Shown here: positions 5,438 through 61,786 of the stretch, piece by piece
How the letters are laid out: the number at the start of each line of letters is the position of its first letter
How positions within the stretch are numbered: position 1 is the stretch's first letter
IMG/VR virus record: IMGVR_UViG_3300020045_002727
Span: 10,136 to 74,135 of that record
From: a virus
Taxonomy: Duplodnaviria > Caudoviricetes
Strand: one strand, 5' to 3'
DNA: 64,000 nucleotides
Position numbers and translations under genes: made by a program
Notes under the pieces: model-generated
What the model was told of the DNA's origin: nothing
The model's input: only the letters and a program-made list of their open reading frames with translations
The model's database searches: none

Positions 5438-5439
5438 AA

Positions 5440-12723: not shown

Positions 12724-12811
12724 CTAGGTGTGAAGGCAATTGGAAGCCGACTCGTTTTGGAAACGAGAAGTAGTTAATAGCTCAATGCAGGTTCGAGTCC
12801 TGTCACTTAGA
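12724..12811 (+). tRNA. tRNA-Pro(UGG), unusually long variable region
   Basis: CTAGGTG/CACTTAG acceptor, CTCGT-TTTGGAA-ACGAG, GCAGG-TTCGAGT-CCTGT; C1:G72 and A73. Confidence 0.85.
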
Positions 12812-12820
12812 CAATATTTT

Positions 12821-12892
12821 GCTCCCATCGTCTAGCGGTTAGGACATCAGGTTTTCGACCTGAGAACGAGGTTTCGACTACCTCTGGGAGTA
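12821..12892 (+). tRNA. tRNA-Glu(UUC)
   Basis: Cloverleaf; TCAGG-TTTTCGA-CCTGA. Confidence 0.92.
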
Positions 12893-12937
12893 CATAGAGA
12901 TACTTAGCCTTTAACTCTTTAAAAAGCAAGGTACTTT

Positions 12938-13009
12938 TGCACCATCGTATAACGGCTAGTACAATTGCCTTTGAAGCAATTAGCATAGGTTCGATTCCTT
13001 TTGGTGCAA
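12938..13009 (+). tRNA. tRNA-Gln(UUG)
   Basis: TGCACCA/TGGTGCA; ATTGC-CTTTGAA-GCAAT. Confidence 0.92.
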
Positions 13010-13016
13010 CAAACAT

Positions 13017-13091
13017 GGTGATTGTAGCTGAATTGGTTAAAGCCTCTGATTGTGATTCAGAAGATTAAGGGTTCGAGTCCCTTCTTTCACA
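13017..13091 (+). tRNA. tRNA-His(GUG)
   Basis: TCTGA-TTGTGAT-TCAGA; extra 5' G; two U.U mismatches in the acceptor stem. Confidence 0.85.
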
Positions 13092-13096
13092 CTAAA

Positions 13097-13178
13097 GCTG
13101 ATGTGAGTTAAAAGCGAATGGCAGAGCATCTCCCCTTAGAAGGGAGGACTTTTGAGGGTTCAAATCCCTCCAACAGCA
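13097..13178 (+). tRNA. tRNA-Leu(UAG), atypical (short variable loop, long D loop)
   Basis: CTCCC-CTTAGAA-GGGAG; GAGGG-TTCAAAT-CCCTC; GCTGATG/CAACAGC. Confidence 0.75.
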
Positions 13179-13183
13179 CTACT

Positions 13184-13255
13184 TTCTGATTAGTTCAATG
13201 GATAGAACAGGTGATTACGAATCATCAAATACAAGTTCGAGTCTTGTATCGGGAA
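13184..13255 (+). tRNA. tRNA-Arg(ACG)
   Basis: GGTGA-TTACGAA-TCATC; TTCTGAT/ATCGGGA. Confidence 0.9.
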
Positions 13256-13260
13256 CAATA

Positions 13261-13339
13261 GGGGTCATGGTGAAACGGTAAACACGCAGGTCTTAAAAAT
13301 CTGTGCTTCGGCTTGTGGGTTCAACTCCCACTTTCCCCA
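13261..13339 (+). tRNA. tRNA-Leu(UAA)
   Basis: CAGGT-CTTAAAA-ATCTG; type II variable arm. Confidence 0.9.
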
Positions 13340-13364
13340 CAAAAGTTAAAATATTCACAAAATA

Positions 13365-13396
13365 TTTGCACATGTAAATTATTTGTAATATCTTTG
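13365..13396 (+). promoter_or_regulatory. Bacteroidota-type promoter inside tRNA array 1
   Basis: TTTG 13365-13368; TATCTTTG 13389-13396. Confidence 0.75.
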
Positions 13397-13444
13397 CTTC
13401 ATAATAAAACGAATAGTTCAGTTGATAGGGAACAATTTAAAATT

Positions 13445-13517
13445 TGGTATATAGCTCAATTGGTAGAGCATCTCCCTGATACGGAGAAGGGTATAGGTTC
13501 GAGTCCTATTGTACCAA
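13445..13517 (+). tRNA. tRNA-Ile(GAU)
   Basis: TCTCC-CTGATAC-GGAGA; TGGTATA/TGTACCA. Confidence 0.9.
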
Positions 13518-13532
13518 CAATATTAAATAAAG

Positions 13533-14033
13533 ATGATTAGAAATTCAAAACAAGTAGAGTTAACAAAATTAGCTTATAATAAAGGATATAGAGTTTTAGA
13601 AAATGGAGATGTGATAGGACTTAGAGGTAAGAAATTAAATCTTTTTGAAAACAGTAAAGGATATTATTGTTTCACTATAAGAAGAAAAGATAAATGCCCT
13701 ACTTATACATTTGTTCATAAATTAAAAGCCTATCAATTATTTGGAGATGAATGTTTTAATGAAGGAATTGTAATTAGACATTTTAATGGTAACAATAAAG
13801 ATAACTCAGATATTAATATTAAAATTGGAACTCAATTTGATAACATGATGGATATGACACCATTACAGAGAAAGTTAAATGCGAGTAGTCCTATTCATAA
13901 TCATTCTGAAATATTGAAAGATAGAGAATCTGGAATGACATATAGAGAAATACAAGAAAAATACAATATTTCATCTAAAGGAACAATTAGTTTTATTGTA
14001 AACAAATCAATGAAGAAAGAAAAACTAAAATAA
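13533..14033 (+). CDS. HNH homing endonuclease inside tRNA array
   Basis: FVHKL...VIRHFNGNNKDN...GTQFDNMMD; C-terminal HTH-like segment. Confidence 0.85.
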   Translation: MIRNSKQVELTKLAYNKGYRVLENGDVIGLRGKKLNLFENSKGYYCFTIRRKDKCPTYTFVHKLKAYQLFGDECFNEGIVIRHFNGNNKDNSDINIKIGTQFDNMMDMTPLQRKLNASSPIHNHSEILKDRESGMTYREIQEKYNISSKGTISFIVNKSMKKEKLK

Positions 14034-14068
14034 ATGTTAAAATAGTTGCAAGGTAATATTTTTTGATA

Positions 14069-14076
14069 TATCTTTG
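14069..14076 (+). promoter_or_regulatory. Bacteroidota -7 promoter element
   Basis: TATCTTTG 11 nt upstream of the tRNA at 14088. Confidence 0.7.
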
Positions 14077-14087
14077 TACCATAATAT

Positions 14088-14171
14088 AGCGAGGTAGTCA
14101 GTAGATGGTAGCTTGTGAGGCTCATAACCTCATGTCGAAAGACCCCGTGGGTTCGAGTCCCACTCTCGCAA
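14088..14171 (+). tRNA. tRNA with CAU anticodon (initiator-like, A1.A72 mismatch) and extra variable arm
   Basis: TGAGG-CTCATAA-CCTCA; GTC-GAAA-GAC arm; GTGGG-TTCGAGT-CCCAC. Confidence 0.8.
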
Positions 14172-14236
14172 CAAGATTTGTCATCGTTTTTTAAAATTAA
14201 GGATTAATAAGTGACGGCTCGGAAAGACGAGCAATT

Positions 14237-14308
14237 GGTCTATTGGAGTAGTGGTAACTGTACTAGCTTGTCACGCTAGGGTCGGGGGTTCGATTCCCCC
14301 ATAGACCG
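14237..14308 (+). tRNA. tRNA-Asp(GUC)
   Basis: CTAGC-TTGTCAC-GCTAG; GGTCTAT/ATAGACC. Confidence 0.92.
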
Positions 14309-14347
14309 CAAAAGTTTTATAAGATTTTCCTTTGATAAAATCTAAAC

Positions 14348-14421
14348 GCCTTAATAGCTCAGTCGGTTAGAGCATCTCATTTGTAACGAGAAGGTCGTAG
14401 GTTCAAACCCTACTTTTGGCT
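14348..14421 (+). tRNA. tRNA-Thr(UGU)
   Basis: Loop TTTGTAA; canonical D and T arms; two U.U mismatches in the acceptor stem. Confidence 0.88.
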
Positions 14422-14508
14422 CTATTTTAGAAAACATTAATCCTATGGTCGGATGTGAGAACCATATAGCCGTATTTAAAAAACTCACAATGTTTTCTAA
14501 AAGAGTAA

Positions 14509-14619
14509 GCTCGATTAGTGTAATGGTAACACGCAGCAAATCCCAGCTGAAAGAGAGTCATAGAGTAGAAATAATCACTTTATGATGAAACATAACAGGT
14601 TCGATTCCTGTATCAAGCT
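14509..14619 (+). ncRNA. 111-nt tRNA-like RNA (Gly-like acceptor) with large internal insertion
   Basis: GCTCGAT/ATCAAGC acceptor, GTGT-AATGGTA-ACAC D arm, ACAGG-TTCGATT-CCTGT T arm; aberrant anticodon arm plus an extra 8-bp hairpin. Confidence 0.65.
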
Positions 14620-14667
14620 CAAATCGATTGGTTGTGATGACGAGGAGGTCGATGCCTCAATTACAAT

Positions 14668-14739
14668 CGTGTGTTCGTCTAGTGGTCAAGGACGGTGACA
14701 AGTGCGTTGCAAACATGGGTTCAAATCCCATACACACAT
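14668..14739 (+). pseudogene. Degenerate tRNA / tRNA-like RNA with 6-nt anticodon loop
   Basis: GTGTGT/ACACAC acceptor, GTCTAGTGGTCAAGGAC D arm, ATGGG-TTCAAAT-CCCAT; loop AAGTGC. Confidence 0.65.
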
Positions 14740-14850
14740 CAAATAGTCTATTAATAAAAGTTATATCAATGACACATAACAACGTGATTAACTTAGGATA
14801 TGAGAATGTAAGTTCTCCACATAGTAAACCGATAAAATTAATAGACATAT

Positions 14851-14923
14851 ATCCTTATAGCTTAAATGGAAAAGCCTCTGATTTCTAATCAGACGAGTAC
14901 AGGTTCAAATCCTGTTAGGGATA
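14851..14923 (+). tRNA. tRNA-Arg(UCU)
   Basis: TCTGA-TTTCTAA-TCAGA; ATCCTTA/TAGGGAT. Confidence 0.92.
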
Positions 14924-14927
14924 CAAA

Positions 14928-15026
14928 GGGAGATGATAGCGATTTTGGGAAAGGTGAGTTGACTCCTCATCCGTATTCAGGTTGCCACCATGCAACTGGT
15001 GCTGAGTATGTAGCTACATATCTCCC
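14928..15026 (+). ncRNA. Unassigned ~99-nt structured RNA between two tRNAs
   Basis: Nested stems GGGAGAT/ATCTCCC, TAGC/GCTA, GTATTCAG/CTGAGTAT, GTTGC/GCAAC. Confidence 0.6.
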
Positions 15027-15033
15027 CTATTAG

Positions 15034-15107
15034 TGCCATTTAGCTCAGTTGGTTAGAGCAGTCCCCTCATAAGGGAAAGGTCACAGGTTCGAGTCCTGTA
15101 GTGGCAA
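15034..15107 (+). tRNA. tRNA with CAU anticodon (elongator Met or lysidine Ile2)
   Basis: TCCC-CTCATAA-GGGA; TGCCATT/AGTGGCA. Confidence 0.88.
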
Positions 15108-15167
15108 CAAAAAGTCAGGGTAACACCTGATTTAATTTTAAGTATTAATGTAAAAAAATTTACAGTT

Positions 15168-15522: not shown

Positions 15523-15875
15523 ATTATAAGGAAACAATTTTAATTCCTACATCAGTGTTGTTGTCTAAATTATGCTCTGAGATAGATTCGTATTTTTATT
15601 CATTCGGTCAAGATTTACCATCTAAGAATAAGATTCAGAAGTGGTTGAGGGATGAATGGGATGTGGACATGAGTGTTCATTTAAACGGTATGTGTGGGAT
15701 TAACATAGATAGTGGTGAAGTGACTAAGAATTACGGTGGTCATTATATTTACAAAGGTGATGTGTACATGCTTGGTTTAACACCGTTTATAACATCTCAC
15801 GAGGAAGCGCAGGAAACGATTATAAGATTAATATTAACTAAATTATTGAAAGAATATGATAACAACGATTTATAA
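15519..15875 (+). CDS. Hypothetical protein
   Basis: 118 aa, ATGA-coupled to the upstream gene. Confidence 0.7.
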   Translation: MNYKETILIPTSVLLSKLCSEIDSYFYSFGQDLPSKNKIQKWLRDEWDVDMSVHLNGMCGINIDSGEVTKNYGGHYIYKGDVYMLGLTPFITSHEEAQETIIRLILTKLLKEYDNNDL

Positions 15876-16938
15876 AAAAGATTCCAATGGTAAAGTTCGA
15901 TACATCACCATTGGTAATTTCGGAGCAGTAATAACTCAACAATCTGGTATTGTAGGTTCTGACAAATTTGTAGAACACTCTAAAACAGCTACTGGAAAGA
16001 ACGTTAGAAGAGCAAATGAAACTTCACCAGAATATCAAGCTGAACTTGAAGTTACAGCATGGGTTAAGGATAAATTAACCAAAGGTTATTTTAGGACAAT
16101 AGAGGAAACAAAATCAGCCGAGGTAGTACTACCTATGTTAGCAAAAGATTTCTTCAAGGAACGTCACAAAATTGACTGGAATAAAGATGTGATAGTGGTT
16201 CAACCAAAGTTGGATGGGATGAGATGTTTAGCATTCGTTTCAGCCGATGGTAAAGTAGAGCTTGTATCACGAGCTGGGAAGAAGATTGAGAACATGATGC
16301 ATATTGAGAAAGAGCTGTCAACACTGGGTGTGGATGTGATTCTTGATGGTGAATTATATGTTCATGGTGAAGGATTCCAGACTAATATGTCATACGTTAA
16401 AAAATATGTTGAAGGGAAGTCGGAGAGGATTATTTTTAATGTTTATGATATGGTTAGTGATAGACCTTATTTATCTAGGATTGATAAAGTTAAAACTATC
16501 ATCGACCATTTGAAAAAAGTAAGACCTTTATTTTACAGCACTGTTGGAACAGAGGATGAACTCAAACAACATTTTACAATTTACATAAAAGAAGGATACG
16601 AAGGCGCAATGGTCAAAATATCTAAATCTGGCTACAAGTCCAACGCCCGTAGTTCCGAACTATTAAAGTACAAAAAGTTCATCGACATCCAACTACCAAT
16701 CAAAGACATCATTCCAGCAGACCAAAGACCTACATGGGGAATCCCAGTGTACTATTGGGAAGGAGCTGATGATGACACTTTGAAATCTGGTACAAAAATG
16801 AGTCACGAAGAACGTGAGGACTTGTTGACCAACAAAGATAAATACATCGGACAGATGGCAGAGGTTAGATTTTTTGAATATTCAGATGCTGGAGTACCGA
16901 GGTTTCCAGTGACTGTAGGTATTAGACTTGATAAATAG
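15856..16938 (+). CDS. lig: ATP-dependent DNA ligase
   Basis: VQPKLDGMRC (KxDG), LDGELY, FNVYD, GYEGAMVK, LLKYKK; OB-fold with PRFP. Confidence 0.93.
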   Translation: MITTIYKKDSNGKVRYITIGNFGAVITQQSGIVGSDKFVEHSKTATGKNVRRANETSPEYQAELEVTAWVKDKLTKGYFRTIEETKSAEVVLPMLAKDFFKERHKIDWNKDVIVVQPKLDGMRCLAFVSADGKVELVSRAGKKIENMMHIEKELSTLGVDVILDGELYVHGEGFQTNMSYVKKYVEGKSERIIFNVYDMVSDRPYLSRIDKVKTIIDHLKKVRPLFYSTVGTEDELKQHFTIYIKEGYEGAMVKISKSGYKSNARSSELLKYKKFIDIQLPIKDIIPADQRPTWGIPVYYWEGADDDTLKSGTKMSHEEREDLLTNKDKYIGQMAEVRFFEYSDAGVPRFPVTVGIRLDK

Positions 16939-17470: not shown

Positions 17471-17633
17471 ATATAATAATGTTACAGGTAATCTTGTAAC
17501 ATTAATCCAAACAGAAGAAGATAAAAAGTACAGTCTTGAACATAATGTAACTAAATTCTCATCAATTATTTATAATGGTAAGACAATTACTGATTGTGAT
17601 GAAATTAATAAAATATTAGGAGATGAACCATAA
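17457..17633 (+). CDS. Small hypothetical protein (58 aa)
   Basis: ATG 17457 to TAA 17633 bridges the flanking genes. Confidence 0.55.
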   Translation: MNRPEYNNVTGNLVTLIQTEEDKKYSLEHNVTKFSSIIYNGKTITDCDEINKILGDEP

Positions 17634-18453
17634 ACAATACGTAATAGCCGACCTCCATTTCAGCCATTTAAACATGGCTTTAAAACGAGGTTTCTCCTCA
17701 GCCGAGGAACACGACCAGCACATCATCGATAGATGGAACAGTGTGGTTAAAAAGAAGGATACTGTTTGGATTCTAGGTGATGTCACCATGGAGAAAAAAT
17801 CTCCGTATGACCTTCTGGATAAACTAAACGGTTACAAGAAAGTTGTACTAGGGAATCATGATGATGGTAATCACATTCCAGAATTATTGAAACATGTCAA
17901 TTCGGTTTGTGGAATGGTTAAGCACAAAGGATTTTTGTTAACACATTGTCCAGTCCATGAATCACAATTAGAAAGGTACGATGCAAACATACACGGACAT
18001 GTCCATGAGAACTCTTTAGAGGACTTTAGATACATTAATGTGAGTGCAGAGGTATTAGACTATACCCCAGTGGAAATTGATGCCTTAAAAGAAGTATTTT
18101 TACCAATTCCGAATTATGAAGGATTGTATGAAGTTTCTAATCATGGGAGGGTTAAGTCACTTGCTGGTAAAAACGAAAAGATTTTAAAGAATCGTACTGG
18201 CGGTAATACAAAATATCAGGCTGTAATTTTAAGTAAAAATGGAGTTCCTGAAAGCTGCCGAGTTCATTCATTGGTTGCTAAAGTTTTCCTTGGTCATACT
18301 CCATGTGGACACGAATTAGTGATAGACCATAAGAATAGTATTGCTACGCATAATTACCTTTGGAACTTACAGATTATAAGCCAGAAGGAGAATGTTGAGA
18401 AGATTAAGAGGCTCGGGAAGGACGGGTATATGAAAATTAATTCTAAATATTAA
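17623..18453 (+). CDS. Calcineurin-like metallophosphoesterase fused to NUMOD4-HNH endonuclease
   Basis: DLHF, LGD, LGNHD, HGHVH, then in frame IPNYEGLYEVSNHGRVKS...RVHSLVA...IDHKN...NLQ. Confidence 0.85.
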   Translation: MNHKQYVIADLHFSHLNMALKRGFSSAEEHDQHIIDRWNSVVKKKDTVWILGDVTMEKKSPYDLLDKLNGYKKVVLGNHDDGNHIPELLKHVNSVCGMVKHKGFLLTHCPVHESQLERYDANIHGHVHENSLEDFRYINVSAEVLDYTPVEIDALKEVFLPIPNYEGLYEVSNHGRVKSLAGKNEKILKNRTGGNTKYQAVILSKNGVPESCRVHSLVAKVFLGHTPCGHELVIDHKNSIATHNYLWNLQIISQKENVEKIKRLGKDGYMKINSKY

Positions 18454-18788: not shown

Positions 18789-21700
18789 TTACTCACTAAC
18801 TTTACTGGTTTTAACCAGCTCTTTACGTACTTTCTCTAGCTCTCTATAGCTATCAGCTTCAACTCCTGTTGTTGCTCTCAAACATTCCATTATAAACATT
18901 GCTCTCATAAATCTTAAATGTGATGGATTGTCCATTATAAAATGTTCCTCTTTACCCCAATCATTCGTGATGTATGCCTCACCATCGTAAGCAAAATCTG
19001 CATTCTCAACTATTTGATTCTTAATATCAACTGGTATAGAATAAATTCCATAAACACTTTTCCCTTTGTTATCAAATGTATAGAATGGTAAAGAACCGTT
19101 CTCTTTCTTATATGCATCAGCCCATTGTTTGTATGTAGTAAATTCTTCATCTTCGTTTCCGAATAAATAATGGAATCTATTTAACAACTCAATCTGACTA
19201 TCCTCCATGAAATTACCAATTAATAATGGATTCAAATCCTTTGTCAGGTTAGAGTAAAACTGTTTAGTCTTAAACTTCCAATCAATCTCTTTATTCATCC
19301 ATTCTTGGTGTCTTTCACTATCATCTTCATCGTCAACTAGGAATGAGAACAACGCTGCCGTATTTGATGTTAAAAGTGTTAAAGCAAAAGCCTTAATCCC
19401 TTGGAACATCACTTGTTCAGTTACCGTTGCTGCTAATGACCTAACAGATTTCTTTAATGATGTATTTTTACCTTGTGATGTTGTGTGAGCATTTTGTAAC
19501 ATGTTACCGTTCATAACAGAATCGATTAATTCTCTTGATGTCATGTTTTGAACTTGTTGTGCAAACTTACCATTCTTACGGGTATTCATAATTTCACTAA
19601 TATCTAAAGTCATCCTCATTTTACTGTTGATGTTGAATTGCTGGAATGGTAAGAAGATTGAACGTAATGCTGCAACCCCAACATGAGGATTGCTGAACAA
19701 ACTGGCAGACCTTTGGTTATTTGATGCTACTTGTGTTTCTTCAACTCTAACCTCTGCATAAGATGCTGCAAGTTGTCTAACTTCATCATTCTCTATCAAT
19801 TCATGTTCTCTTGAAATGTCAATGTTATTAACATCTCGACCATTCTTCTTCAAGTACTCTAAATAATAAGTAGTCCATGCTGCTCTAGCCACAGCCTCGT
19901 CACCAGCTTGTAAAGGTTTCATTAAAACATCCCTTGTTTTATCAAAGAACTGTCCAAACTTCCTAGAGACATTAGATACACCTCCAGATACACCTTTATA
20001 TTTATTCAAGTCTGTTGCACTATCCGCTATAGAACGAGTACCTAAAATACTCTTACCACGCATACTCGTTGAGTAATCTTCAAGTAATGTGTTGTTTTGT
20101 GACACTCTAAAATTAGATATGAAACTACCCATGTTTTTAGTACCAACTTGAACAGCTACTTGTGACATAACTGGAACAGTTTGTTTTATGATAGCTGTAA
20201 CACCACCTAACGCAGCTGTAACCCCAATTCTCTTGAATACACTTTCAACTTTTGATATAGCTCTTTCAGAATCTGATGTTTCATTTAAAAATCCAGAAGC
20301 TAACTTTTGCATGTAGTTTATTCTATTAACGAAAACAGATGTTGTATTTTTACCCATTAAGGCTTTAATCTGCTTACTATTGAAGAAACTTCTTATGTGT
20401 TGCATCGCACTGGAAGTGTGAATGTCATTCAGACCCATTTTAAACCTATTCAACATCGCTGCATCAAAATCTAAATCTAGCATACCATTGTTAGGTAACT
20501 TTTTAGATTTGTTTCGCTTAACGGTTGTAGAAGCCTGTTTAGGTGCTGAAATCCCACCATAATTAAATGATGAGCCACTTTCTTCATCTAATGATGCCCC
20601 TCTATCAACTTTTATTTTGATAGGTAAGTAATTATCAGATACTTCGTTAAATATTTCGTTATGAACTACTTCTGTATTCTCCTTCAATTCTTCCTTAATA
20701 CTTGCAAACTTATCCATCCAGAATTTAACAAGTTCATAGTTACCATCATCTCTTGATTTTAAATGGTCTAATATTTCTTGTTGTGTTTCAAAACCTTTAA
20801 ACTCATCATAAATTGATTGAGTTTCATCTTGGTATTTATCATCCTTCTTGATGTGGTCTTCCATTCTAGCCTTATTAATCTCTAACTCCTCTTTGGTACT
20901 ACCTTGGATTAAGTTTGAGACTACTCCACGTAACATTGTGTTATCTGAGTTTCTAAGGTTTTTATTTTTAACCGATAAAGTTTTGAATAATGAATCCAAC
21001 TCTTTAGTTGCAGCATCTACCAATCTATCAACTCGAACTTGACCTTTACTTAAATTACTCAAACCTGAGAAGTAGTTAAATTCACCCATTAATGCTGGTG
21101 TCTTGTAAACTTCTTTCATCATCAATGCCAGAGATTTAAGGTCATTTATTGGATTACCTTTTGTAACTTTAGTGTCAATGTTTATCTTACCTAATGGTAC
21201 ACCTGACTTAATCACTTTCGTTACAAACTTATACATACTATTGATGGCTTCTATTTCTGATGCTATTTTACCAGCTCCAGCTAAATTACCATTTGTGAGT
21301 AAATTTTGAACTGCTTTGATGTACTCTTTAAGAGCTACTGAATCCATAAATTCAAGGTTAGCTTTACTCAATTGTTTAGCCACCTCTCTCGATTTTGGTA
21401 GTTTGATTGTGTTAAAATCAAAACCACTAATTGCTAACTCATATATTTCAGCAATAGATTTCAACTTATCCTTTAAAGCGTTAGCTTTATCAAGGGATGC
21501 TTGTTTCTTCTCTTCTAGTGTTGCACCATCTACATTAATATCTGTATCCCAGAAATCTCTTAATTCTGAATCAGTCATATTCAAACCTGTTACATCTATA
21601 CCCATCAAGCCTAAAGCATCTTTGATTTCTTCAATCCTGTTAGCTTCTGCGTTGTCAACTAGCTTTTGTAGAGTGTTGTAAGCAGCATCTACATCTACCA

Positions 21701-41548: not shown

Positions 41549-44191
41549 TTAGTTTACTAGCGAACTTATGTCTCCGCTGTTATCATATTGCTGGAACAAA
41601 TTTATTACTTTTTTTGATTCGGTCTTTTTGGGTTTTGAACGATACTTCTCTTTTCCACAAGCCATTATACATAAACCGCTTGATATTGTTGCATCATAGT
41701 CTGTCCTGTTGTCAGGATTAAACCCTAACCAATCTAACAAAGTTTCTTCAAATGGGAAATCTCCAATCTCACCAAGTGGTCTAATTTGTTCTTTTGTGGA
41801 TTCACCGACATAGTCTTCTATCCAAGAACCTATCGAGTTCATGTGTGAGTCAATCATATCCTTACCAGACATCATTTGACCACCGTACTCTTTCTCATTC
41901 TCATTCAATGCTTTTGGACTTCTATCTACACGATTTAATGAGAATCCTCTGTATCCTCTATTTCTAAAGTGACGAAGTAAGTCAATCCTGTTACTCTCTA
42001 CAAGTATTGGCATTCCGTAGAATCTACAAGCCATAATCGCATCCTCGAAGAATATTGTTTCATCAGCTGGACGAGCTATGTACTCTAAAAAGAATTTATT
42101 TGCTGGTGCGCCTCCTTCTGGAGTGTGTAATGTTTTACCGTGAATAGCTCCTTTAGAACCCTTACCATGTGTTGATTTTAATGTAAACGGGTCACATCCT
42201 AATGCTCCAACACCTTTGTTTAAAGGGTAATATTTACCATTCATTTCTTTAACACCATTCAACATACCTATTGTACCGTCCGCAGCATTTGGAATCCAAG
42301 CTAACTTAAACCTACCTTTTGGATTTGGACACCATTCTACATCACCATCTTGTATCCCATCTTTCCATCTGAAATTACCTACTGTGTATAGATTAGCTTT
42401 ACCTAAGTTATTATTATGGTCTAATTGCGCATGTATTTTTGTAATGTTGAAAACTGTTTCAGAAGCCTCATCACGCATAGCATGTTCGACTGTTCTTGGC
42501 ATTGTTCTATATTGCTCATTTAAAGCCTTATCACTAACCATCTTTTGAGATTCCTCAACAGCGATTAAGTATTCTATAGAACCCATTTCAATCAATGCTC
42601 CATCAACATTATATGTACCTGCTGGTGGAGTTTCTGTCCAACATTTACCATATTTATCTGTAAACTCCTCCATGTTGTCTTGTGCAGCAAGGAAGTGGAA
42701 ATATAGTGCTGTAGGTGTTTTACCTGTTTTAGGATTTCTATCTTTAACCTGAGAACCTTTAATTAAGTCAATGAATTGTTGACCACCTTTATTTCTAGCT
42801 CCCATGGTAGAACCTAGGAAAGCTGTACCTACTACTTTACCGTTAGGCATCATTGTAGGTCTAATTTGACCAAGGTGAGTAATATAATCCATTGGACGTT
42901 CCCATTTTGCAGATTCATCACCTAAGTAACCATTCAACTTAATCGAGTCATAGGAGCTATTTTTAGTAGGTCTATGGTCGATAACTGTGTTTAAATAGTC
43001 ATCTGTATTAGTGTCTCTCTTTTTCTTGGCATCCTTAGACATGTTTGAAGGTTTAGCAAACTCTATAATTTCTTGTGAGTCCTCTTTACCTTTTACAACT
43101 GGTCTAAATATGAATGGTAAGTTTAGGAACATATAGGAGAATTTACCAAATGCTTCTTCAACGTCATCCCCTGTTTTAGAAGTCATACCGTATTTACCAT
43201 TTTTTGTAGAAGTAGCCATATTTAAGAGGATGGCTAGAATTATGTATGTAAATCCTGTACGTCTTGATTTTAAGAATATTTGTCCTAAACATCTTCTATC
43301 GACTATACATGCTTCAAGGTGATAAAACATTTCTAATTGAGCGTAACGGAAAGCCATAAAACCACCGTCATCCTGCATTTTACACCATTGTAAAGCCCAA
43401 TACATATTACCTGTAAGATAAACTGGTTCACCATTATTCATGAACCAAATTCCTTCTCTACGTCTTCTAAATTCCTCCATAATGTAGTCATGATACATGT
43501 CAACATTATCTGGACTTAATCCTTTATGCTCTGGCAGCCTTCTCCAATACTGTTCTTCTTTTGGTAAATCATGAAATAATATCTGTGTTTTATCCTCTGG
43601 AACTTTTGGTAGCCATATGTTTAATTCTGATATTGTAATCATTTTACCTTTTGTTGAGAAAGGACAAATTATTACTGCATCATTTTCTTTATCTAACGTT
43701 TCTTTGTGATAGTCTTTTTTAGGGTAAATCTCACCCTTAGCAAACTTCTCAGGATAACCAATTTTAAATTCTTTCTCACCGAAGTTAACTTCCCCAGATT
43801 CAAGTTGAACTCTAAATTCGTTTATGCTACTATCTAAAGAGAAGATAGCTTCTAATATTAATGGTTTGGCTTTAACAGCCGCTGCGTATTTTTCTTCTTT
43901 TAATGAATCGTAATCAATATCTTTTGCTAAAGCTCTTTCTAAATCATCAATTGCTCTATCTCCTGCTTCGATAAGTCTCCTTACATAACCTTCTGATTTT
44001 TCTTTTGATGGTGCATTTGGAGAATTAGCCCATCTATGTAGTAACTTTTTAGCAGAACTAAAAGAATCTACTTTTGAGTCCATTGTAGTTTTCATTTTAG
44101 AGTCATCTAAAAAGTCTACAACCATCTCACGTTCTAAACCTTTCAAGATGGTTTCTAACGCTGGTTCTATATGTCCGCTTAATCCTCTCAT
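41549..44191 (-). CDS. terL: Terminase large subunit with long N-terminal extension
   Basis: LKSRRTGFT Walker A, LGDESAKW, GCDPF nuclease, LVESNR, YDATISSG. Confidence 0.9.
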   Translation of the reverse strand: MRGLSGHIEPALETILKGLEREMVVDFLDDSKMKTTMDSKVDSFSSAKKLLHRWANSPNAPSKEKSEGYVRRLIEAGDRAIDDLERALAKDIDYDSLKEEKYAAAVKAKPLILEAIFSLDSSINEFRVQLESGEVNFGEKEFKIGYPEKFAKGEIYPKKDYHKETLDKENDAVIICPFSTKGKMITISELNIWLPKVPEDKTQILFHDLPKEEQYWRRLPEHKGLSPDNVDMYHDYIMEEFRRRREGIWFMNNGEPVYLTGNMYWALQWCKMQDDGGFMAFRYAQLEMFYHLEACIVDRRCLGQIFLKSRRTGFTYIILAILLNMATSTKNGKYGMTSKTGDDVEEAFGKFSYMFLNLPFIFRPVVKGKEDSQEIIEFAKPSNMSKDAKKKRDTNTDDYLNTVIDHRPTKNSSYDSIKLNGYLGDESAKWERPMDYITHLGQIRPTMMPNGKVVGTAFLGSTMGARNKGGQQFIDLIKGSQVKDRNPKTGKTPTALYFHFLAAQDNMEEFTDKYGKCWTETPPAGTYNVDGALIEMGSIEYLIAVEESQKMVSDKALNEQYRTMPRTVEHAMRDEASETVFNITKIHAQLDHNNNLGKANLYTVGNFRWKDGIQDGDVEWCPNPKGRFKLAWIPNAADGTIGMLNGVKEMNGKYYPLNKGVGALGCDPFTLKSTHGKGSKGAIHGKTLHTPEGGAPANKFFLEYIARPADETIFFEDAIMACRFYGMPILVESNRIDLLRHFRNRGYRGFSLNRVDRSPKALNENEKEYGGQMMSGKDMIDSHMNSIGSWIEDYVGESTKEQIRPLGEIGDFPFEETLLDWLGFNPDNRTDYDATISSGLCIMACGKEKYRSKPKKTESKKVINLFQQYDNSGDISSLVN

Positions 44192-44760
44192 TCTATTTGT
44201 GCTAATATGTCATTTATACTCATCTTATATAATAACTCACCATCAATTATAAACTCATATTCTGAGTAGTCGCTGTAAGCTATTTTAAGACCTTTTAATT
44301 CAATTAATTCTTTACAAGGGTACTTCATTATACCTTGTAACTTTTTGAAGCCTTTATGCGTGTTTCTAATGTGTTCTGAATCTGATATTAAAAATCCTGA
44401 TTGTTCTTCTTTAACTTCTTCAATTGGTTTAACAAAACAAAAAGGTGATAGTGAAATCCAATCCGCACCTTCTCTCTTGTACATGAAACACTCAGTTAAG
44501 GGTACGAAATATAAATCATTTTCAATATGATAGATACTCTTATTTACATTACCTTTTGAACTACCTTTCATTCTAAAGATATTGTGGTGGCATATTACTT
44601 CATCCCCCTCCTTTAAAACAGTGTAATCAGGGGCTGATACTACGGTAGCTTTTCTAGCAATGAAAGAGGCATTATCAACATCTAAATTAGATATTAAATT
44701 ACCTCTATCATTTTCATACTCTTTATCTACCTTTACTATTATAAAGTTGATTGTCCTCAT
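44188..44760 (-). CDS. Tandem GroES-like domain protein
   Basis: Two GroES-like halves (ARKATVV...LKEGDEVICHHN; FCFVKP...SGFLI...GELLYKM...DILA). Confidence 0.6.
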   Translation of the reverse strand: MRTINFIIVKVDKEYENDRGNLISNLDVDNASFIARKATVVSAPDYTVLKEGDEVICHHNIFRMKGSSKGNVNKSIYHIENDLYFVPLTECFMYKREGADWISLSPFCFVKPIEEVKEEQSGFLISDSEHIRNTHKGFKKLQGIMKYPCKELIELKGLKIAYSDYSEYEFIIDGELLYKMSINDILAQIE

Positions 44761-45002
44761 TATTCAAAATCGATTGCTTTTTCTACCACTACTGGCATGT
44801 TTTTAATGTCCTTCCATTCGATGTTTGAACCATCAGGTGTTTTAACAACTATGGTATAACATGTTGAATCATCCTCTATAAATGTCTCTATAGATTTTAT
44901 TTCACAAAGTTGACCATTTAATTTTTGTGGTTTACCTACTTGGTAATGTAATGCTCCGTCTGGGTAGTTTGAACCTACGGAAATTTTTCTAATTGTATTC
45001 AT
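44760..45002 (-). CDS. Conserved small protein
   Basis: IRKISVG...LHYQVG; first gene of the packaging operon. Confidence 0.65.
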   Translation of the reverse strand: MNTIRKISVGSNYPDGALHYQVGKPQKLNGQLCEIKSIETFIEDDSTCYTIVVKTPDGSNIEWKDIKNMPVVVEKAIDFE

Positions 45003-50626: not shown

Positions 50627-50630
50627 GTTG

Positions 50631-50701
50631 AAATCATATTGGGAGTCGAACCCAAACCTTTAATTTTGCAGACTAAATGCTTAACCGTCAGCCTTATGAT
50701 T
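50631..50701 (-). tRNA. tRNA-Cys(GCA)
   Basis: TTAGT-CTGCAAA-ATTAA; AATCATA/TATGATT; U73. Confidence 0.88.
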
Positions 50702-50703
50702 TG

Positions 50704-50776
50704 TGGGGCAGGTGAGAATCGAACTCACTCCTCTGGTTTTTCAGACCAACGCTTCTACCAAGTTAGCTTCTCCCCC
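50704..50776 (-). tRNA. tRNA-Phe(GAA)
   Basis: TTGGT-CTGAAAA-ACCAG; GTGAG-TTCGATT-CTCAC. Confidence 0.9.
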
Positions 50777-50827
50777 AGTATAGCCTTAATCAGTTATAAA
50801 CAATGTTTATAGCCTTTTAAGGTTTTG

Positions 50828-50896
50828 CACAACCCCAAGGAATCGAACCTTGTCCTACACTTTTGGAGAGTGTTTGGCTGCCATAGCCTGAGAAGT
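50828..50896 (-). tRNA. tRNA-Trp(CCA)
   Basis: ACACT-CTCCAAA-AGTGT; CAAGG-TTCGATT-CCTTG. Confidence 0.85.
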
Positions 50897-50901
50897 AGTT
50901 G

Positions 50902-50973
50902 CTGCTCCTAATGGACTCGAACCATTATAAACTGATTAACAGTCAGCCGTAATTACCTTTATACGAAAGAGCA
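50902..50973 (-). tRNA. tRNA-Asn(GUU)
   Basis: GCTGA-CTGTTAA-TCAGT; TGCTCTT/AGGAGCA; G73. Confidence 0.92.
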
Positions 50974-50978
50974 TTTTG

Positions 50979-51063
50979 CAGAAAGTAAAGGTCTCGAACC
51001 CTATGCGAATAAACGCACCACAATCTTAGCAGGATGTGCTGACACCTAGTCAGTCTACTTTCT
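50979..51063 (-). tRNA. tRNA-Ser(GCU)
   Basis: Loop CTGCTAA; long variable arm GTGCG-TTTATT-CGCAT; G73. Confidence 0.88.
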
Positions 51064-51068
51064 ATTTG

Positions 51069-51154
51069 CAGAAGATAGAGAAATCGAATCCCCATCAGGT
51101 ACTACCCGATGCCATGGGGTTCAAGCCCACTTTGTCACCTTGACGGTATCTTCT
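51069..51154 (-). tRNA. tRNA-Ser(UGA)
   Basis: GTGGG-CTTGAAC-CCCAT; 7-bp variable arm; AGAAGAT/ATCTTCT; G73. Confidence 0.88.
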
Positions 51155-51230
51155 ATAATCGTATCGAGACTTCTGACGTAAGCAGTGTATATAATACTTA
51201 CCGAATTAACTCCCTTTATGAGACTCAACG

Positions 51231-51311
51231 TGGGGAGGTGTGGACTCGAACCACTCCCTTGCGGACGGATTTTACAGACCCGTTGCTAAATCCAATTAGC
51301 TTTACTACCCC
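51231..51311 (-). tRNA. tRNA-Tyr(GUA)
   Basis: CGGGT-CTGTAAA-ATCCG; variable arm TCC-GCAA-GGG. Confidence 0.85.
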
Positions 51312-56689: not shown

Positions 56690-57206
56690 CAAATGTTAAA
56701 ATTATGTTAAAGTCTTGCAAAGTGTTGCACAATCCAAAACTTTAAACTACATTTGCTCCATCAAAATATAACAGTTGAGTTTTACACCAAATGTTAAAAT
56801 TTTGTTAAAGTTCAAAAATAGTTTGCAAGTCTCAAAACTTTAAACTACATTTGCTACATCAAATAACAACTATTACACGTTCACACATCTACTGAATTAA
56901 CAAACATACTTCTACAAAGGTTTATAAAATGCTAGTCTAAATTTAAACCTTTCATTTGCCAAGTATTGTAAAGGTTTACATTAAAGACAACAAAAATGGT
57001 AATATCGTCCGCTTAATGTATCAAAACCCAACAAAATAGCAACAAATGTTAAAATTATGTTAAAATTCACAAATTAGTTGTGTAAACCAAATAAAGGTTG
57101 TACATTTGTCCCAACAAAACAAGTTAACGCTAAAATTCGTAAATCGTTAAAGTTTTGTTAAAATTGAAAAAACATTTGCAGGATTCAAATTTTTAACCTA
57201 CATTTG
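56690..57206 (+). promoter_or_regulatory. Array of four tandem promoters (TACATTTG), each preceded by GTTAAA direct repeats
   Basis: TACATTTG at 56748, 56846, 57101 and 57199; (T/C)GTTAAA-N4-TGTTAAA upstream of each. Confidence 0.85.
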
Positions 57207-57289
57207 CTTCATCAATTACAACGTGCCTCTCAAGTGGCTCTTTTATTAAGATTAAATGTAAATTTATTTACAGTCAAACTTGAGTATCA

Positions 57290-57940
57290 TAACATAGTGC
57301 CAGTACGAAAATAGGCGGTCGTAACGCACTCTAAAGAGTAGCCAGTTTAGATTTAGATAACAAAAGTTTCTATTAATCAAGTTTGCAGTGTTGAATTGTA
57401 GCGGTACAATTACATTAGCCAGTATTAAAGTTAAATTTTTAGACAAAACGGGTTTTTATTAGTTGAACCTTAAAAATAACTAACCATAATTCGAGGGTAT
57501 AAATAGGGTTCAAAACCTGCGGTACAATGTTAAAGCCGTCCCACTGATGCTGATTATTGGCGTACTAAGATGCGCACTCCGAAGAGAAAAGCTAAAAGTG
57601 GTGAAAAGTACGAATGTTTGAAATAAGACTTGAGAGAGATTTGCAAGATAATCCAACAACCTTATACGTGGTGTAGTCTACCATAGTCGAGATAGATAAT
57701 GTCGGACGCCTTAAGTGGCTGGAGAAATCTCGGGGTGGTGTGGTCTGTTTAACCATATCATTCAAAACGATGCAAATATGCATACGGACTAAAAACAATA
57801 TGTTGTCGTGTTAACGGCAACCCTATCAACTGAACGAACAGACTGTTTCTGTCATCGTTGGGAGCGAGACCCAATCGTTCATCTAAAAATAAGGTGTTAA
57901 ACACAAGGTTTAATAATGGCTGTGTTGCAGTCAGCCTTAT
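57290..57940 (+). ncRNA. Candidate large structured non-coding RNA
   Basis: No + strand ORF over 60 aa; many hairpins with G.U pairs; downstream of the promoter array. Confidence 0.5.
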
Positions 57941-57948
57941 TTCTTATA

Positions 57949-58083
57949 TGGAATGTACGTCCGAAGGGTTCGGGCTAACTCAAAGAATTGTGTACACCGA
58001 TTCTTTGGGTGATGCAGTGTGTGAGGTTGCGAATGGTTACACATTCAATCCCAATATAGGTTCGATACCTTTACATTCCACTA
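57949..58083 (+). ncRNA. Multi-arm tRNA-like RNA (~135 nt)
   Basis: TGGAATGTA/TACATTCCA closing stem, T-arm-like AGG-TTCGATA-CCT, three internal hairpins. Confidence 0.55.
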
Positions 58084-58105
58084 CTAATTCTTAAATTTTA
58101 AAATT

Positions 58106-58399
58106 ATGTCAAAAGTAAACAATTTACAAGTTACGTTCAATCATTCAGCTAAAACATTCCCAGAAGCATTAGGAATTACAGATGGTGCAAACCATATGTC
58201 AAAAGTATCAGCTGATATTTCAACTGATGTAGCTACTGGAAAAGTAGAAAGAGAAAGTCAAGTAGCTGAACTATTGTACAATCAATTGAGTGATGCTGAA
58301 ATCTTATTAATTGCAGCAAAGTATATCACTAAAACTGTACAAGATTTCCAAAACCAAAACCCACTTGAAGCATTATTACGTGCTGTAAGTAAAAAGTAA
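58106..58399 (+). CDS. Hypothetical early protein
   Basis: 97 aa with A-rich initiation region and strong codon bias. Confidence 0.75.
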   Translation: MSKVNNLQVTFNHSAKTFPEALGITDGANHMSKVSADISTDVATGKVERESQVAELLYNQLSDAEILLIAAKYITKTVQDFQNQNPLEALLRAVSKK

Positions 58400-58406
58400 A
58401 AACGTT

Positions 58407-58478
58407 TACGGAATAGCATAATGGTAATGCAATAGTGCGAAAGCACTACGTATATCGGTTCGACCCCGATTTCCGTAT
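58407..58478 (+). ncRNA. tRNA-shaped RNA with GAAA tetraloop in place of anticodon loop
   Basis: TACGGAA/TTCCGTA, GCAT-AATGGTA-ATGC, TAGTGC-GAAA-GCACTA, ATCGG-TTCGACC-CCGAT. Confidence 0.85.
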
Positions 58479-58509
58479 CAAATAATTATAAACTAAAATC
58501 ACGACAGCT

Positions 58510-58659
58510 ATGAACAATTCAAGCACAACGGGTTTCAGAATGTGTCCAACTAACACAACCCCAGACGTTAAACCAACGGCTAAATCTGACTATGGTAAAG
58601 TATTAACTGACCAGTATGGTAGAACTTACGTTCAAACTGTACATGGTCGAATCTATTAA
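58510..58659 (+). CDS. Small early protein, 49 aa
   Basis: MNNSSTTGFRMCPTNTTPD... Confidence 0.55.
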   Translation: MNNSSTTGFRMCPTNTTPDVKPTAKSDYGKVLTDQYGRTYVQTVHGRIY

Positions 58660-58664
58660 TAGTC

Positions 58665-58952
58665 ATGGCAACATTCACTAAAGAAGTAGCTGAAAGATTT
58701 GAAGTAAAATCTAAAACAGAGCCGTATTGTACAGACTTCGTTTGGTACAACCAATACTTAGAATTCACTTATAATATCCCAATGGATAAACTGGATACTA
58801 TAAATACACCTCAATGGTCACATGTTAAATTGATTGCACCAAATAGTAATGGTATGTTAACCGTAATTGTAGCAGTATTTAACAATGAAATGTTACTTGG
58901 TCTTGAATATGCTGTAAAATATCCACTATTAACCATTAAACTTAAAGACTAA
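58665..58952 (+). CDS. Hypothetical early protein
   Basis: 95 aa, TAATG-coupled to the next gene. Confidence 0.7.
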   Translation: MATFTKEVAERFEVKSKTEPYCTDFVWYNQYLEFTYNIPMDKLDTINTPQWSHVKLIAPNSNGMLTVIVAVFNNEMLLGLEYAVKYPLLTIKLKD

Positions 58953-59611
58953 TGGGAGCATCAAACTTTGCAAGATGTAACACGTCAAAATACTTTGTCG
59001 TGTTAACCAACGTAGATGAAAAATTCTCCGAATGTTCTGAATGTGGTAACAAGCATTGGGAGTGGGAAGAAAATTATGTTGAAGAGGGTGATAAAGATTG
59101 TCCAGATTGTGACAATAAAGATTGCATCACGCATGGTGAAGAGTCACGTAGTCCCGAAGAGTGGGAAATTAACGACTTCAAATCAAATGTAATAGAATCA
59201 CTATCACAACTTTCAGAGTATCGTTCTGGCGGTGCTGATGACCCAGACCGTAACTACTACGGACATTGTTTAGGTACATTATATGACTCTAAAGTATTTG
59301 GTGATGTAGAAGTAGGTCTTGAAATTAGATGTATGCTCTATTCGGCTTATTATGAAGGTGCAACACTGGATTTTATAGCTGAGGTACAAGTTGACGGCTA
59401 CGAGCATGATGACAATGTTGACATTGCTTATGCATCAGATATGAATGCTGGAATGGTTACAATCCAAAACCGCAATGCTCAAAAGTATGTTGACAATTTA
59501 AAAGTAAAATTAGTCAATAAACTCGAAGAGGTTTACGCACAATTCAGTGATAAATATGACCGCTTAGGTGGTTTCTCTGATGGTACTTCAATTTACACTA
59601 AATCTGAATAA
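58952..59611 (+). CDS. Hypothetical early protein with Zn ribbon
   Basis: CSEC...CPDC; acidic. Confidence 0.7.
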   Translation: MGASNFARCNTSKYFVVLTNVDEKFSECSECGNKHWEWEENYVEEGDKDCPDCDNKDCITHGEESRSPEEWEINDFKSNVIESLSQLSEYRSGGADDPDRNYYGHCLGTLYDSKVFGDVEVGLEIRCMLYSAYYEGATLDFIAEVQVDGYEHDDNVDIAYASDMNAGMVTIQNRNAQKYVDNLKVKLVNKLEEVYAQFSDKYDRLGGFSDGTSIYTKSE

Positions 59612-61333: not shown

Positions 61334-61786
61334 ATGGCACACTTAATAATCTCACAAAAAGATGAAATTGCCTACCCAGTAGGTAGAGACATGGCTCAAA
61401 CCATTGAAATAGTATCTCAAATGGTTGAAAAGTTAAGACAATTATACACCTGTTCAGACCCTATCCAATTTGTTGTTAGGGGTTCATCTGGTGCAATTAT
61501 ATCTGGAATTGCTTCAACAATGATGAGAAGTCACGACCTTAAAATAGTTCACCTTAAAAAAGAAGGTGAATCAAGTCATAGTTCAGGAGCTTCAATCGAG
61601 GCAGACAGAAAAGTAATTATCATTGATGACTTAATTGCTTCTGGAGCTACTGTAAACACAATATATTCAGAGGTATCAAAACATAATTTAGAAGTGGATA
61701 CACTTTGTGTTTCTGGTTCAGTTTATACAAGAAACTTGAACTTCAAACCTAATAACATAATCACTGGTACTATTAAAATTAATTAA
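61334..61786 (+). CDS. Type I phosphoribosyltransferase-fold protein
   Basis: PRPP-binding loop VIIIDDLIASGAT; RGSSG. Confidence 0.85.
   Translation: MAHLIISQKDEIAYPVGRDMAQTIEIVSQMVEKLRQLYTCSDPIQFVVRGSSGAIISGIASTMMRSHDLKIVHLKKEGESSHSSGASIEADRKVIIIDDLIASGATVNTIYSEVSKHNLEVDTLCVSGSVYTRNLNFKPNNIITGTIKIN

Follow-up and report, generated by a model that had tools for sequence, protein, structure and literature searches.

What does a bacteriophage gain from an RNA that has the whole body of a transfer RNA (tRNA) and no anticodon loop? The question is raised by a tRNA-shaped element of 72 nucleotides (nt) at positions 58407–58478 (+ strand) of a 64-kb stretch of viral DNA, referred to here as the window, which forms part of the IMG/VR record IMGVR_UViG_3300020045_002727 (74,135 bp, with direct terminal repeats). 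Judged by its muzzle-protein domain, a virion protein of 2,263 amino acids (aa), its portal and its capsid module, the phage is crAss-like, and its source is probably the cattle gut. The purpose of phage tRNAs is an old question, and the recently drawn links to tRNA-cleaving immunity concern tRNAs that still decode. In the element described here, a continuous helix capped by a GNRA tetraloop stands where the anticodon loop should be. We conclude that the element is probably a functional, non-decoding mimic of tRNA.

A complete cloverleaf with a sealed anticodon arm

An earlier note on this DNA, made from the sequence alone, had described a 7-bp acceptor stem, a 4-bp D arm with GG, a 5-bp T arm and a 6-bp stem capped by GAAA, and direct reading of the sequence matches this anatomy exactly. 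The acceptor stem (58407–58413 with 58471–58477) consists of 7 Watson-Crick pairs and is followed by U8 and A9. The D arm, GCAU-AAUGGUA-AUGC (58416–58430), has a 4-bp stem (58416–58419 with 58427–58430) and presents A14 as well as G18 and G19, the GG of the loop AAUGGUA. Two unpaired A (58431–58432) lead from the D stem into the anticodon arm, UAGUGC/GCACUA (58433–58448), whose 6-bp stem (58433–58438 with 58443–58448), again all Watson-Crick, is closed by the GNRA tetraloop GAAA (58439–58442) at tRNA positions 34–37. A 5-nt variable loop, CGUAU (58449–58453), connects to the T arm, AUCGG-UUCGACC-CCGAU (58454–58470), which has a 5-bp stem (58454–58458 with 58466–58470) and contains G53-C61, U54, U55, C56 and A58. 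The 72 nt include the discriminator, U73 (58478). All 22 pairs of the element are Watson-Crick, with no mismatch and no G-U, and the core nucleotides (U8, A14, A15-U48, G18, G19, G45, G53-C61, U54, U55, C56 and A58) are all in place.

The element scores 44.5 bits against the Rfam family RF00005 (gathering score 29; E = 3e-6 for the whole window), a value that falls within the 29–74 bit span of the 17 ordinary tRNAs in the window. Its minimum-free-energy and centroid folds are the cloverleaf (−21.9 kcal/mol; z-score −3.06), and one of 200 shuffled sequences was as stable. ARAGORN reports no transfer-messenger RNA (tmRNA) at this site, and no Rfam match to tmRNA or YrlA was found there up to E = 5. 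A D arm identical to that of the element is found in many phage tRNAs of several isotypes.

The anticodon arm is where the element departs from an ordinary tRNA. ARAGORN labels it tRNA-?(Phe|Phe), with an 'anticodon' of 2 bases. Position 33 is a C that is paired to G38, and the element has instead a continuous anticodon-arm helix under a stable tetraloop within a complete cloverleaf, the combination that we refer to as a sealed arm. Since the arm offers neither a 7-nt loop nor U33 nor a free triplet, the element is almost certainly unable to decode, as the earlier note had soundly deduced.

Remodelling versus decay of the anticodon arm

In overall length the element matches a normal tRNA whose D loop has 7 nt, and the 23 nt from D stem to T stem equal the 1 + 17 + 5 of a standard tRNA. 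The sealed helix pairs 28-43 through 33-38, as against 27-43 through 31-39 in a normal tRNA, such that its register is moved by one base; Infernal can fit the arm only as an 8-nt 'loop' with an A27-C43 mismatch. Because the total length is normal but the stem register is displaced, the element is not the product of a single mutation. By our reading of the sequence, the conversion of an ordinary arm into the sealed one requires several matched changes within 17 nt, with 44 other paired bases perfect. Such a confined and coordinated change fits remodelling under selection rather than decay, since neutral decay of that extent should have damaged other stems too. The statement in the earlier note that clean pairing speaks against decay thereby gains support, not only from the 22 Watson-Crick pairs but also from the canonical core, the normal length despite the displaced register, and the 3' trailer of the lineage described below.

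The competing view is that the element is a neutral relic, i.e. a former phage tRNA that lost its function, folds well by chance, and is carried along in a fast-changing accessory cassette. It is indeed a singleton for which none of the searched collections contains a homologue, and it sits in a cassette of orphan open reading frames (ORFs) at whose edges homology with a 90–96% identical relative breaks. The same phage also encodes other imperfect tRNA-likes (8-nt loop, 6-nt loop, C1-A72 mismatch), some of which could be decaying copies. However, a relic would have to retain every core nucleotide and the lineage trailer, with zero mismatches or G-U in 22 pairs, while the change stayed limited to the anticodon arm and ended, through several matched substitutions, in a perfect GNRA-capped helix of moved register. 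Moreover, independent lineages arrive at the same design and retain it through compensatory changes. We therefore regard a relic as quite improbable.

The origin of the element was also considered. The element is not a recent paralogue of any of the phage's own tRNAs, and when about 1,700 tRNAs were scored for the nearest neighbour, no isotype of origin stood out clearly. There is a weak resemblance to phage tRNA-Gly and tRNA-Thr (U73, the D arm and 'AAUAG'), drawn from a sample biased by the search patterns.

A lineage-specific 3' trailer

The element does not encode CCA; the trinucleotide CAA (58479–58481) follows directly after discriminator U73. The ordinary tRNA genes of the window behave in the same manner: none of the 17 encodes CCA, all 17 have C74, and 12 carry CAA, a triplet with a background frequency of 2.2% (P about 8e-17 for its enrichment after the window tRNAs). 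The more general trailer N73-C-(A/T)-A is present on 17 of 17 tRNAs of this phage and on 22 of 22 tRNAs of the relatives G001 and G006 (loci L308–L311 and L320–L321). It also extends to unusual members, as U73-CAA follows two other odd tRNA-likes of the same phage (14509–14619 and 14668–14739), and the lone strong covariance-model match in relative G002 carries C73-CAA.

The C-(A/T)-A trailer thus appears to be a lineage-specific substitute for an encoded CCA, and looks like a lineage-wide signature of 3'-end processing or repair. Because it bears this trailer, the element looks like a unit that is treated as a tRNA by the 3'-end machinery of the lineage, and the trailer points, indirectly, to tRNA-like maturation. 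At the 5' side, position −1 is a U. The N73-C-(A/T)-A trailer may also provide a simple marker for odd RNAs that are handled as tRNAs in this lineage.

Sealed cloverleaves in other phages

A search of phage genomes for cloverleaves without an anticodon, which the earlier note had proposed, shows that the same design recurs, with covariation, in other phages. In our pattern scans, the tRNA landmarks and a C-GNRA-G motif at positions 33–38 were the only fixed features. GNRA-sealed cloverleaves were recovered from IMG/VR contigs (L084, L009, L119, L148, L163, L171, L178, L463 and L464), and further ones from metagenome contigs (L335, L336 and L338). They have helices of 5 to 8 bp under their GNRA caps, and some encode CCA. 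The strict pattern is found in 7 stretches in IMG/VR (the phage's own record left out), 7 stretches in the JGI metagenomes, and only 2 in the 596 Gb of prokaryote genomes, so that phages are clearly enriched for it, although the measure is rough.

In one family of these elements (L009, L338, L336 and L464), the tRNA body is 94% identical and the sealed stem is paired in every sequence, with compensatory changes in 2 of its 5 pairs and with either GAAA or GCAA as the cap. The covariation in the stem and the GAAA/GCAA variation of the cap argue for selection on the capped helix, and not on an anticodon. The family looks like a remodelled tRNA-Phe whose substitutions are clustered in the anticodon arm.

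Several members belong to a recurring array in which a sealed tRNA-like is joined by tRNA-Ile and by a tRNA whose loop has 8 nt. One GNRA-sealed member adjoins a second tRNA-like that is sealed by UUCG over a 10-bp stem, which our pattern did not select. This small array is shared by GC-rich viral and metagenome contigs (L163:7100–7327, L178:1748–2204, L463:10324–10780, L464:4133–4375 and L336:3685–3991), where a UUCG-sealed tRNA-like (10-bp stem, CCA encoded) and a GNRA-sealed one are accompanied by tRNA-Ile(GAT) or tRNA-Arg and by the 8-nt-loop tRNA (ARAGORN 'gatg').

Gene context and transcription

The position of the element apart from both tRNA arrays of the phage, also pointed out in the earlier note, is confirmed by the gene map. 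Array 2 (50630–51311, − strand) is 7.1 kb distant and array 1 (12724–15108) is 43 kb away, and the surroundings consist of small + strand ORFs. Upstream, an ORF of 97 aa (58106–58399, +) has a stop codon that ends 7 nt before the element; apart from matches of 31–36% identity, it is an orphan. Downstream, an ORF of 49 aa (58510–58659, +) starts 31 nt past the discriminator and is followed by an orphan ORF of 95 aa (58665–58952, +). No promoter- or terminator-like site was found between the element and the adjoining ORFs. As the spacers measure 7 nt and 31 nt and contain no such separating site, the element is very probably co-transcribed with these ORFs. From the layout, it is plausible that the surrounding genes are early.

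The next gene (58952–59611, +) encodes a Cys-rich protein of 219 aa and is the one gene of the early block that is conserved. The 75 homologues of the protein, with up to 48% identity, come from uncultured phages, and one of them has been annotated as TFIIB/Brf1-like by JGI. Phages that share this protein show the same order: a resolvase gene, a long gap, and small + strand ORFs.

Upstream of the small ORFs lies a gene-poor stretch of 3 kb in which a 73-nt repeat occurs four times (56695–57218, +; GTTAAAATTNTGTTAAAG ... AAACTACATTTGC ... CATCAA). These repeats are probably early promoters or binding sites. Their core motif is also found inside the 45-nt insertion of a 118-nt interrupted tRNA in the relative G001 (19144–19261). 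The region from about 57220 to 58083 (+), ahead of the first small ORF, appears to encode a leader non-coding RNA of ∼860 nt that is likely structured and has no Rfam match. Its 3' domain (57951–58083, +) is tRNA-like, with an acceptor formed by GGAAUGU (57951–57957) and ACAUUCC (58073–58079), a T arm (58056–58072), and a terminal A73-CUA. ARAGORN calls a 'tRNA-His' at 57985–58081, which we do not accept as a tRNA in view of its mismatched acceptor, 3-bp D stem and lack of an Rfam match; it is reinterpreted here as part of the larger tRNA-like domain. Because the leader ends in such a domain, the 97-aa ORF is bracketed by two tRNA-like elements.

Proposed mode of action

We propose the following course of events, which in its complete form, trans-acting decoy step included, is tentative and falls somewhat short of an even chance. 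The element would be transcribed as part of a + strand operon whose start lies upstream, in the non-coding region with the repeats, and would have no promoter or terminator of its own, since the 7-nt and 31-nt spacers leave no room for them. Host tRNA maturation enzymes would then excise it, with RNase P cutting at the 5' end (after the U at −1). For the 3' end, the pathway used by the 17 real tRNAs of the phage would be responsible, because the element carries their N73-C-A-A trailer. Excision is predicted to yield a stable L-shaped RNA as large as an ordinary tRNA, in which 6 bp under a GNRA cap make the anticodon arm a rigid helix. Such an RNA could not pair with a codon, would lack the anticodon bases that most synthetases read and so is unlikely to be charged, and would present no single-stranded loop to anticodon nucleases. 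Early in infection it may act in trans, as an uncleavable pseudo-substrate or as a ligand of a host factor with specificity for the tRNA body, the most likely target being a tRNA-targeting defence nuclease. As a side effect, excision would sever the early mRNA just 3' of the 97-aa ORF.

Among the genes of the phage are those for an RNA ligase (PF09414; 52784–53752, − strand) and a metallophosphoesterase with a NUMOD4 motif (17623–18453, +), which could form a healing-and-sealing pair for RNA (tRNA). These enzymes fit a phage that lives under tRNA-cleaving defences, for which T4 with PrrC and RNA ligase is a precedent (PMC10264068). A separate ATP-dependent DNA ligase is encoded at 15856–16938 (+).

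The main rival to this proposal is a purely cis-acting role as punctuation. In that case, the element would recruit RNase P and the tRNA 3'-end machinery to cut the early RNA between the 97-aa and 49-aa ORFs, thus setting message stability or translation, and sealing would keep the by-product inert. The location of the element, 7 nt past a stop codon and 31 nt ahead of the next start, with no promoter- or terminator-like site of its own, is what punctuation would predict, as are the bracketing of the 97-aa ORF by the tRNA-like leader domain and the element, and the common C-(A/T)-A trailer, which points to a common 3'-end pathway. In a related phage (L333:3130–3174), a clean minihelix is found at the equivalent place, at the end of the gap and before the first early gene. 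There are established precedents in the tRNA punctuation of mitochondrial transcripts and in MALAT1, from which RNase P and RNase Z liberate mascRNA.

The design of the element is harder to reconcile with punctuation. For RNase P, the acceptor/T-arm stack and the elbow suffice, and a perfect, full-length anticodon arm of exact tRNA size is superfluous. The same phage group also uses bare minihelices, whereas the element retains a D arm of full size and a rigid anticodon arm. Sealed tRNA-likes elsewhere lie within tRNA arrays, where their neighbours already provide cleavage sites, and for that reason punctuation does not explain the class as a whole. Finally, the cut does not seem essential to the operon, since homology with a close relative breaks at both edges of the cassette. 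Punctuation is accordingly a genuine possibility, though on balance an unlikely one. The trans-acting role is favoured because the full-length anticodon arm exceeds what RNase P needs and because members of the class sit within tRNA arrays.

The acceptor/T-arm half is the part read by EF-Tu and by several synthetases and transferases. It is intact here and would also suit a non-ribosomal carrier of amino acids, charged by a synthetase that ignores the anticodon and donating to, e.g., cell-wall, lipid or peptide tailoring. Nevertheless, none of the known identity sets that work independently of the anticodon (reviewed in PMC9976931) is present: the element has C3-G70 and not G3-U70, a short variable loop, no G-1, and U73 with U1-A72/A2-U71 instead of the GlyRS set. 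In addition, no aminoacyl-tRNA synthetase, Fem-type or other aminoacyl-transferase, or CCA-adding enzyme was found among the phage ORFs scanned. A carrier function is very improbable.

Homologue searches and the early cassette

Several lines of evidence weigh against the proposed function. Searches of INPHARED, IMG/VR, the JGI metagenomes and GTDB (one genome per prokaryote species) returned no homologue of the element, with either a sealed or a normal loop, and, as a consequence, selection on this particular copy is not measurable. The nucleotide search of INPHARED with the region and the element returned either no match or only tRNA fragments of 18–25 nt. Phages with 55–66% portal identity have the structural modules, the replication modules and the tRNA arrays in common with this phage, but not the early region; when the latter was compared with four relatives by blastn, the resolvase gene was the only similarity. 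The portal-based relatives, scanned whole with covariance model R1, yielded ordinary tRNAs or other odd tRNA-likes, and no homologue of the element.

Anchors in the early region gave a similar result. An IMG/VR search for related loci with the 219-aa protein found nothing. The closest contigs with homologues of this protein (44–48% identity) include only 54–300 nt upstream of the gene before the contig ends, and longer contigs from more distant phages keep the layout and lack a tRNA-like element. Where distant homologues of the 97-aa ORF exist (31–36% identity), the downstream genes abut and no tRNA-like lies alongside. The idea of a partner protein encoded next to the element finds no support either, given that the 97-aa and 95-aa ORFs are orphans. 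The RNA ligase was also tried as a synteny anchor and rejected, as the 23 loci retrieved share the ligase only, with no tRNAs nearby.

The nearest relative comes from two bovine-metagenome DNA runs that contain only 7% of the sampled words; no RNA run was among the matches. Contigs of this relative retain the leader RNA and the gene downstream of the cassette: they are about 90% identical over 57200–58083, with three hairpin-sized replacements, and about 96% identical from 58952 on. Homology stops exactly at 58083 and resumes at 58952, and the contigs run into unlike sequence at both edges. No contig in the two runs covers or bridges 58084–58951, which says nothing about expression. The 870-nt cassette thus delimited comprises the 97-aa ORF, the element, the 49-aa ORF and the 95-aa ORF. 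Because homology with a 90–96% identical relative breaks at both of its edges, the cassette is dispensable or exchangeable.

As the record is a metagenome assembly, and as these two public runs include parts of the region and leave 58084–58951 uncovered, an error of assembly or sequencing has to be considered. Such an error would need to produce a perfect 16-nt hairpin in phase with a perfect cloverleaf, in a complete genome of 74,135 bp with direct terminal repeats, and the same design is seen in many independent assemblies. We find an artefact barely credible. An attP-like copy of a host tRNA was likewise set aside: attP carries only the 3' part of a tRNA, and the search of cellular genomes covered the class pattern only.

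Other reservations concern the mechanism itself. A stoichiometric decoy of an enzyme requires abundance and tight binding, and many anticodon nucleases read the very loop that this RNA lacks. The placement outside the tRNA arrays, with an ORF on either side, is just as compatible with a processing site that acts purely in cis. Fold, core, trailer, position and the recurrence with covariation elsewhere are direct observations, from which we infer transcription, processing, stability and the trans target.

Comparison with known systems

With canonical bacterial and phage tRNAs (RF00005), the element shares the full cloverleaf, the core tertiary nucleotides and the normal length, and it has the 3' trailer of its lineage. 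Phage tRNAs with altered anticodon loops are known to evade anticodon nucleases (PMC10264068), as do T5 tRNA-Lys in the case of PARIS (PMC11464382) and tRNA-Tyr in the case of retron Ec78 (PMC11555353). The likeness is that a changed anticodon loop would block cutting; the present phage also encodes 17 ordinary tRNAs and an RNA ligase. In contrast to the element, the evading tRNAs retain a 7-nt loop, U33 and a functional anticodon, and stand in for host tRNAs that have been depleted. The RNA described here, which has no loop and no anticodon, cannot replace any tRNA in translation.

Non-decoding RNAs of tRNA shape include mascRNA (from MALAT1), the MEN-beta tRNA-like and the vtRNAs of murine gammaherpesvirus 68, all of which are excised from longer precursors by RNase P and RNase Z before CCA is added. 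The element resembles them in having the shape of a tRNA, with an anticodon arm that is reduced or unreadable, and no decoding function. They are eukaryotic or encoded by an animal virus and have degenerate arms, whereas all arms of the element are perfect and its GNRA cap looks designed; its excision is predicted from sequence. The tRNA-like domains of tmRNA and of YrlA/Y RNA (RF00023 and RF02553) similarly offer an acceptor, T arm and elbow to tRNA-handling proteins without decoding. Those domains, unlike the element, are embedded in larger scaffolds and lack a complete, free-standing cloverleaf.

As a tRNA-shaped element between ORFs, whose excision would separate messages, the element also resembles the punctuation tRNAs of mitochondria and the sites at which RNase P cleaves bacterial operon mRNAs (PMC11143913). 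The mitochondrial tRNAs differ in that they also decode, and the bacterial mRNA sites are weak mimics, unlike the perfect cloverleaf seen here.

In full-text literature searches, we found no report of a phage-encoded tRNA that is sealed by a tetraloop and otherwise perfect. Non-decoding tRNA-shaped RNAs and phage tRNAs with altered loops are known; what is new for the present element is its maturation signature.

Other tRNA-shaped RNAs and genes of the phage and its relatives

Two further tRNA-shaped RNAs of this phage cannot decode normally. The one at 14509–14619 (+) has an 8-nt loop without U33 and a 45-nt extra arm that forms a hairpin, and the other, at 14668–14739 (+), has a 6-nt loop and a C1-A72 mismatch. 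An unassigned 82-nt sequence between tRNA-His and tRNA-Arg (13097–13178) is a weak match to covariance model R1. Outside the window, an acceptor/T-arm minihelix is present at genome positions 2017–2059 (L326).

Related phages of 72–74 kb contain similar oddities. In G002, the sole strong R1 match (44722–44803, − strand, in L314) is an 82-nt tRNA-like which, by its fold, has a bulged stem and a 9-nt A-rich loop. In G018 (41755–41827, − strand, L291), the sole strong match is a tRNA-like whose loop lacks a proper U33 context and which ARAGORN calls tRNA-Val(GAC).

The phage further encodes a PRPP-synthetase-like protein and a dual-specificity-phosphatase-like protein (genome positions 5105–5983 and 746–1228, L326), as well as a small phosphoribosyltransferase (window positions 61334–61786). 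This set may serve nucleotide or NAD salvage, of the kind that phages use against NAD-depleting defences.

Implications

A whole tRNA body with a closed decoding loop separates the shape of tRNA from translation, and points to a function in binding or processing. A far-reaching generalization would be that sealed-anticodon look-alikes are a widespread RNA-based counter-defence of phages, serving as pseudo-substrates that resist cleavage and tie up tRNA-targeting immune nucleases or other host factors that sense tRNA. In the present phage, such an RNA would be delivered from an exchangeable early cassette, alongside repair by RNA ligase and three further non-decoding tRNA-shaped RNAs. We consider this generalization speculative and give it a low likelihood. 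If such RNAs do titrate tRNA-targeting defences or steer RNase P, they would represent a new kind of RNA-only tool for host takeover. The occurrence of the element in this phage extends the design to the crAss-like phages, a dominant group of gut phages, where it lies inside a swappable early cassette.

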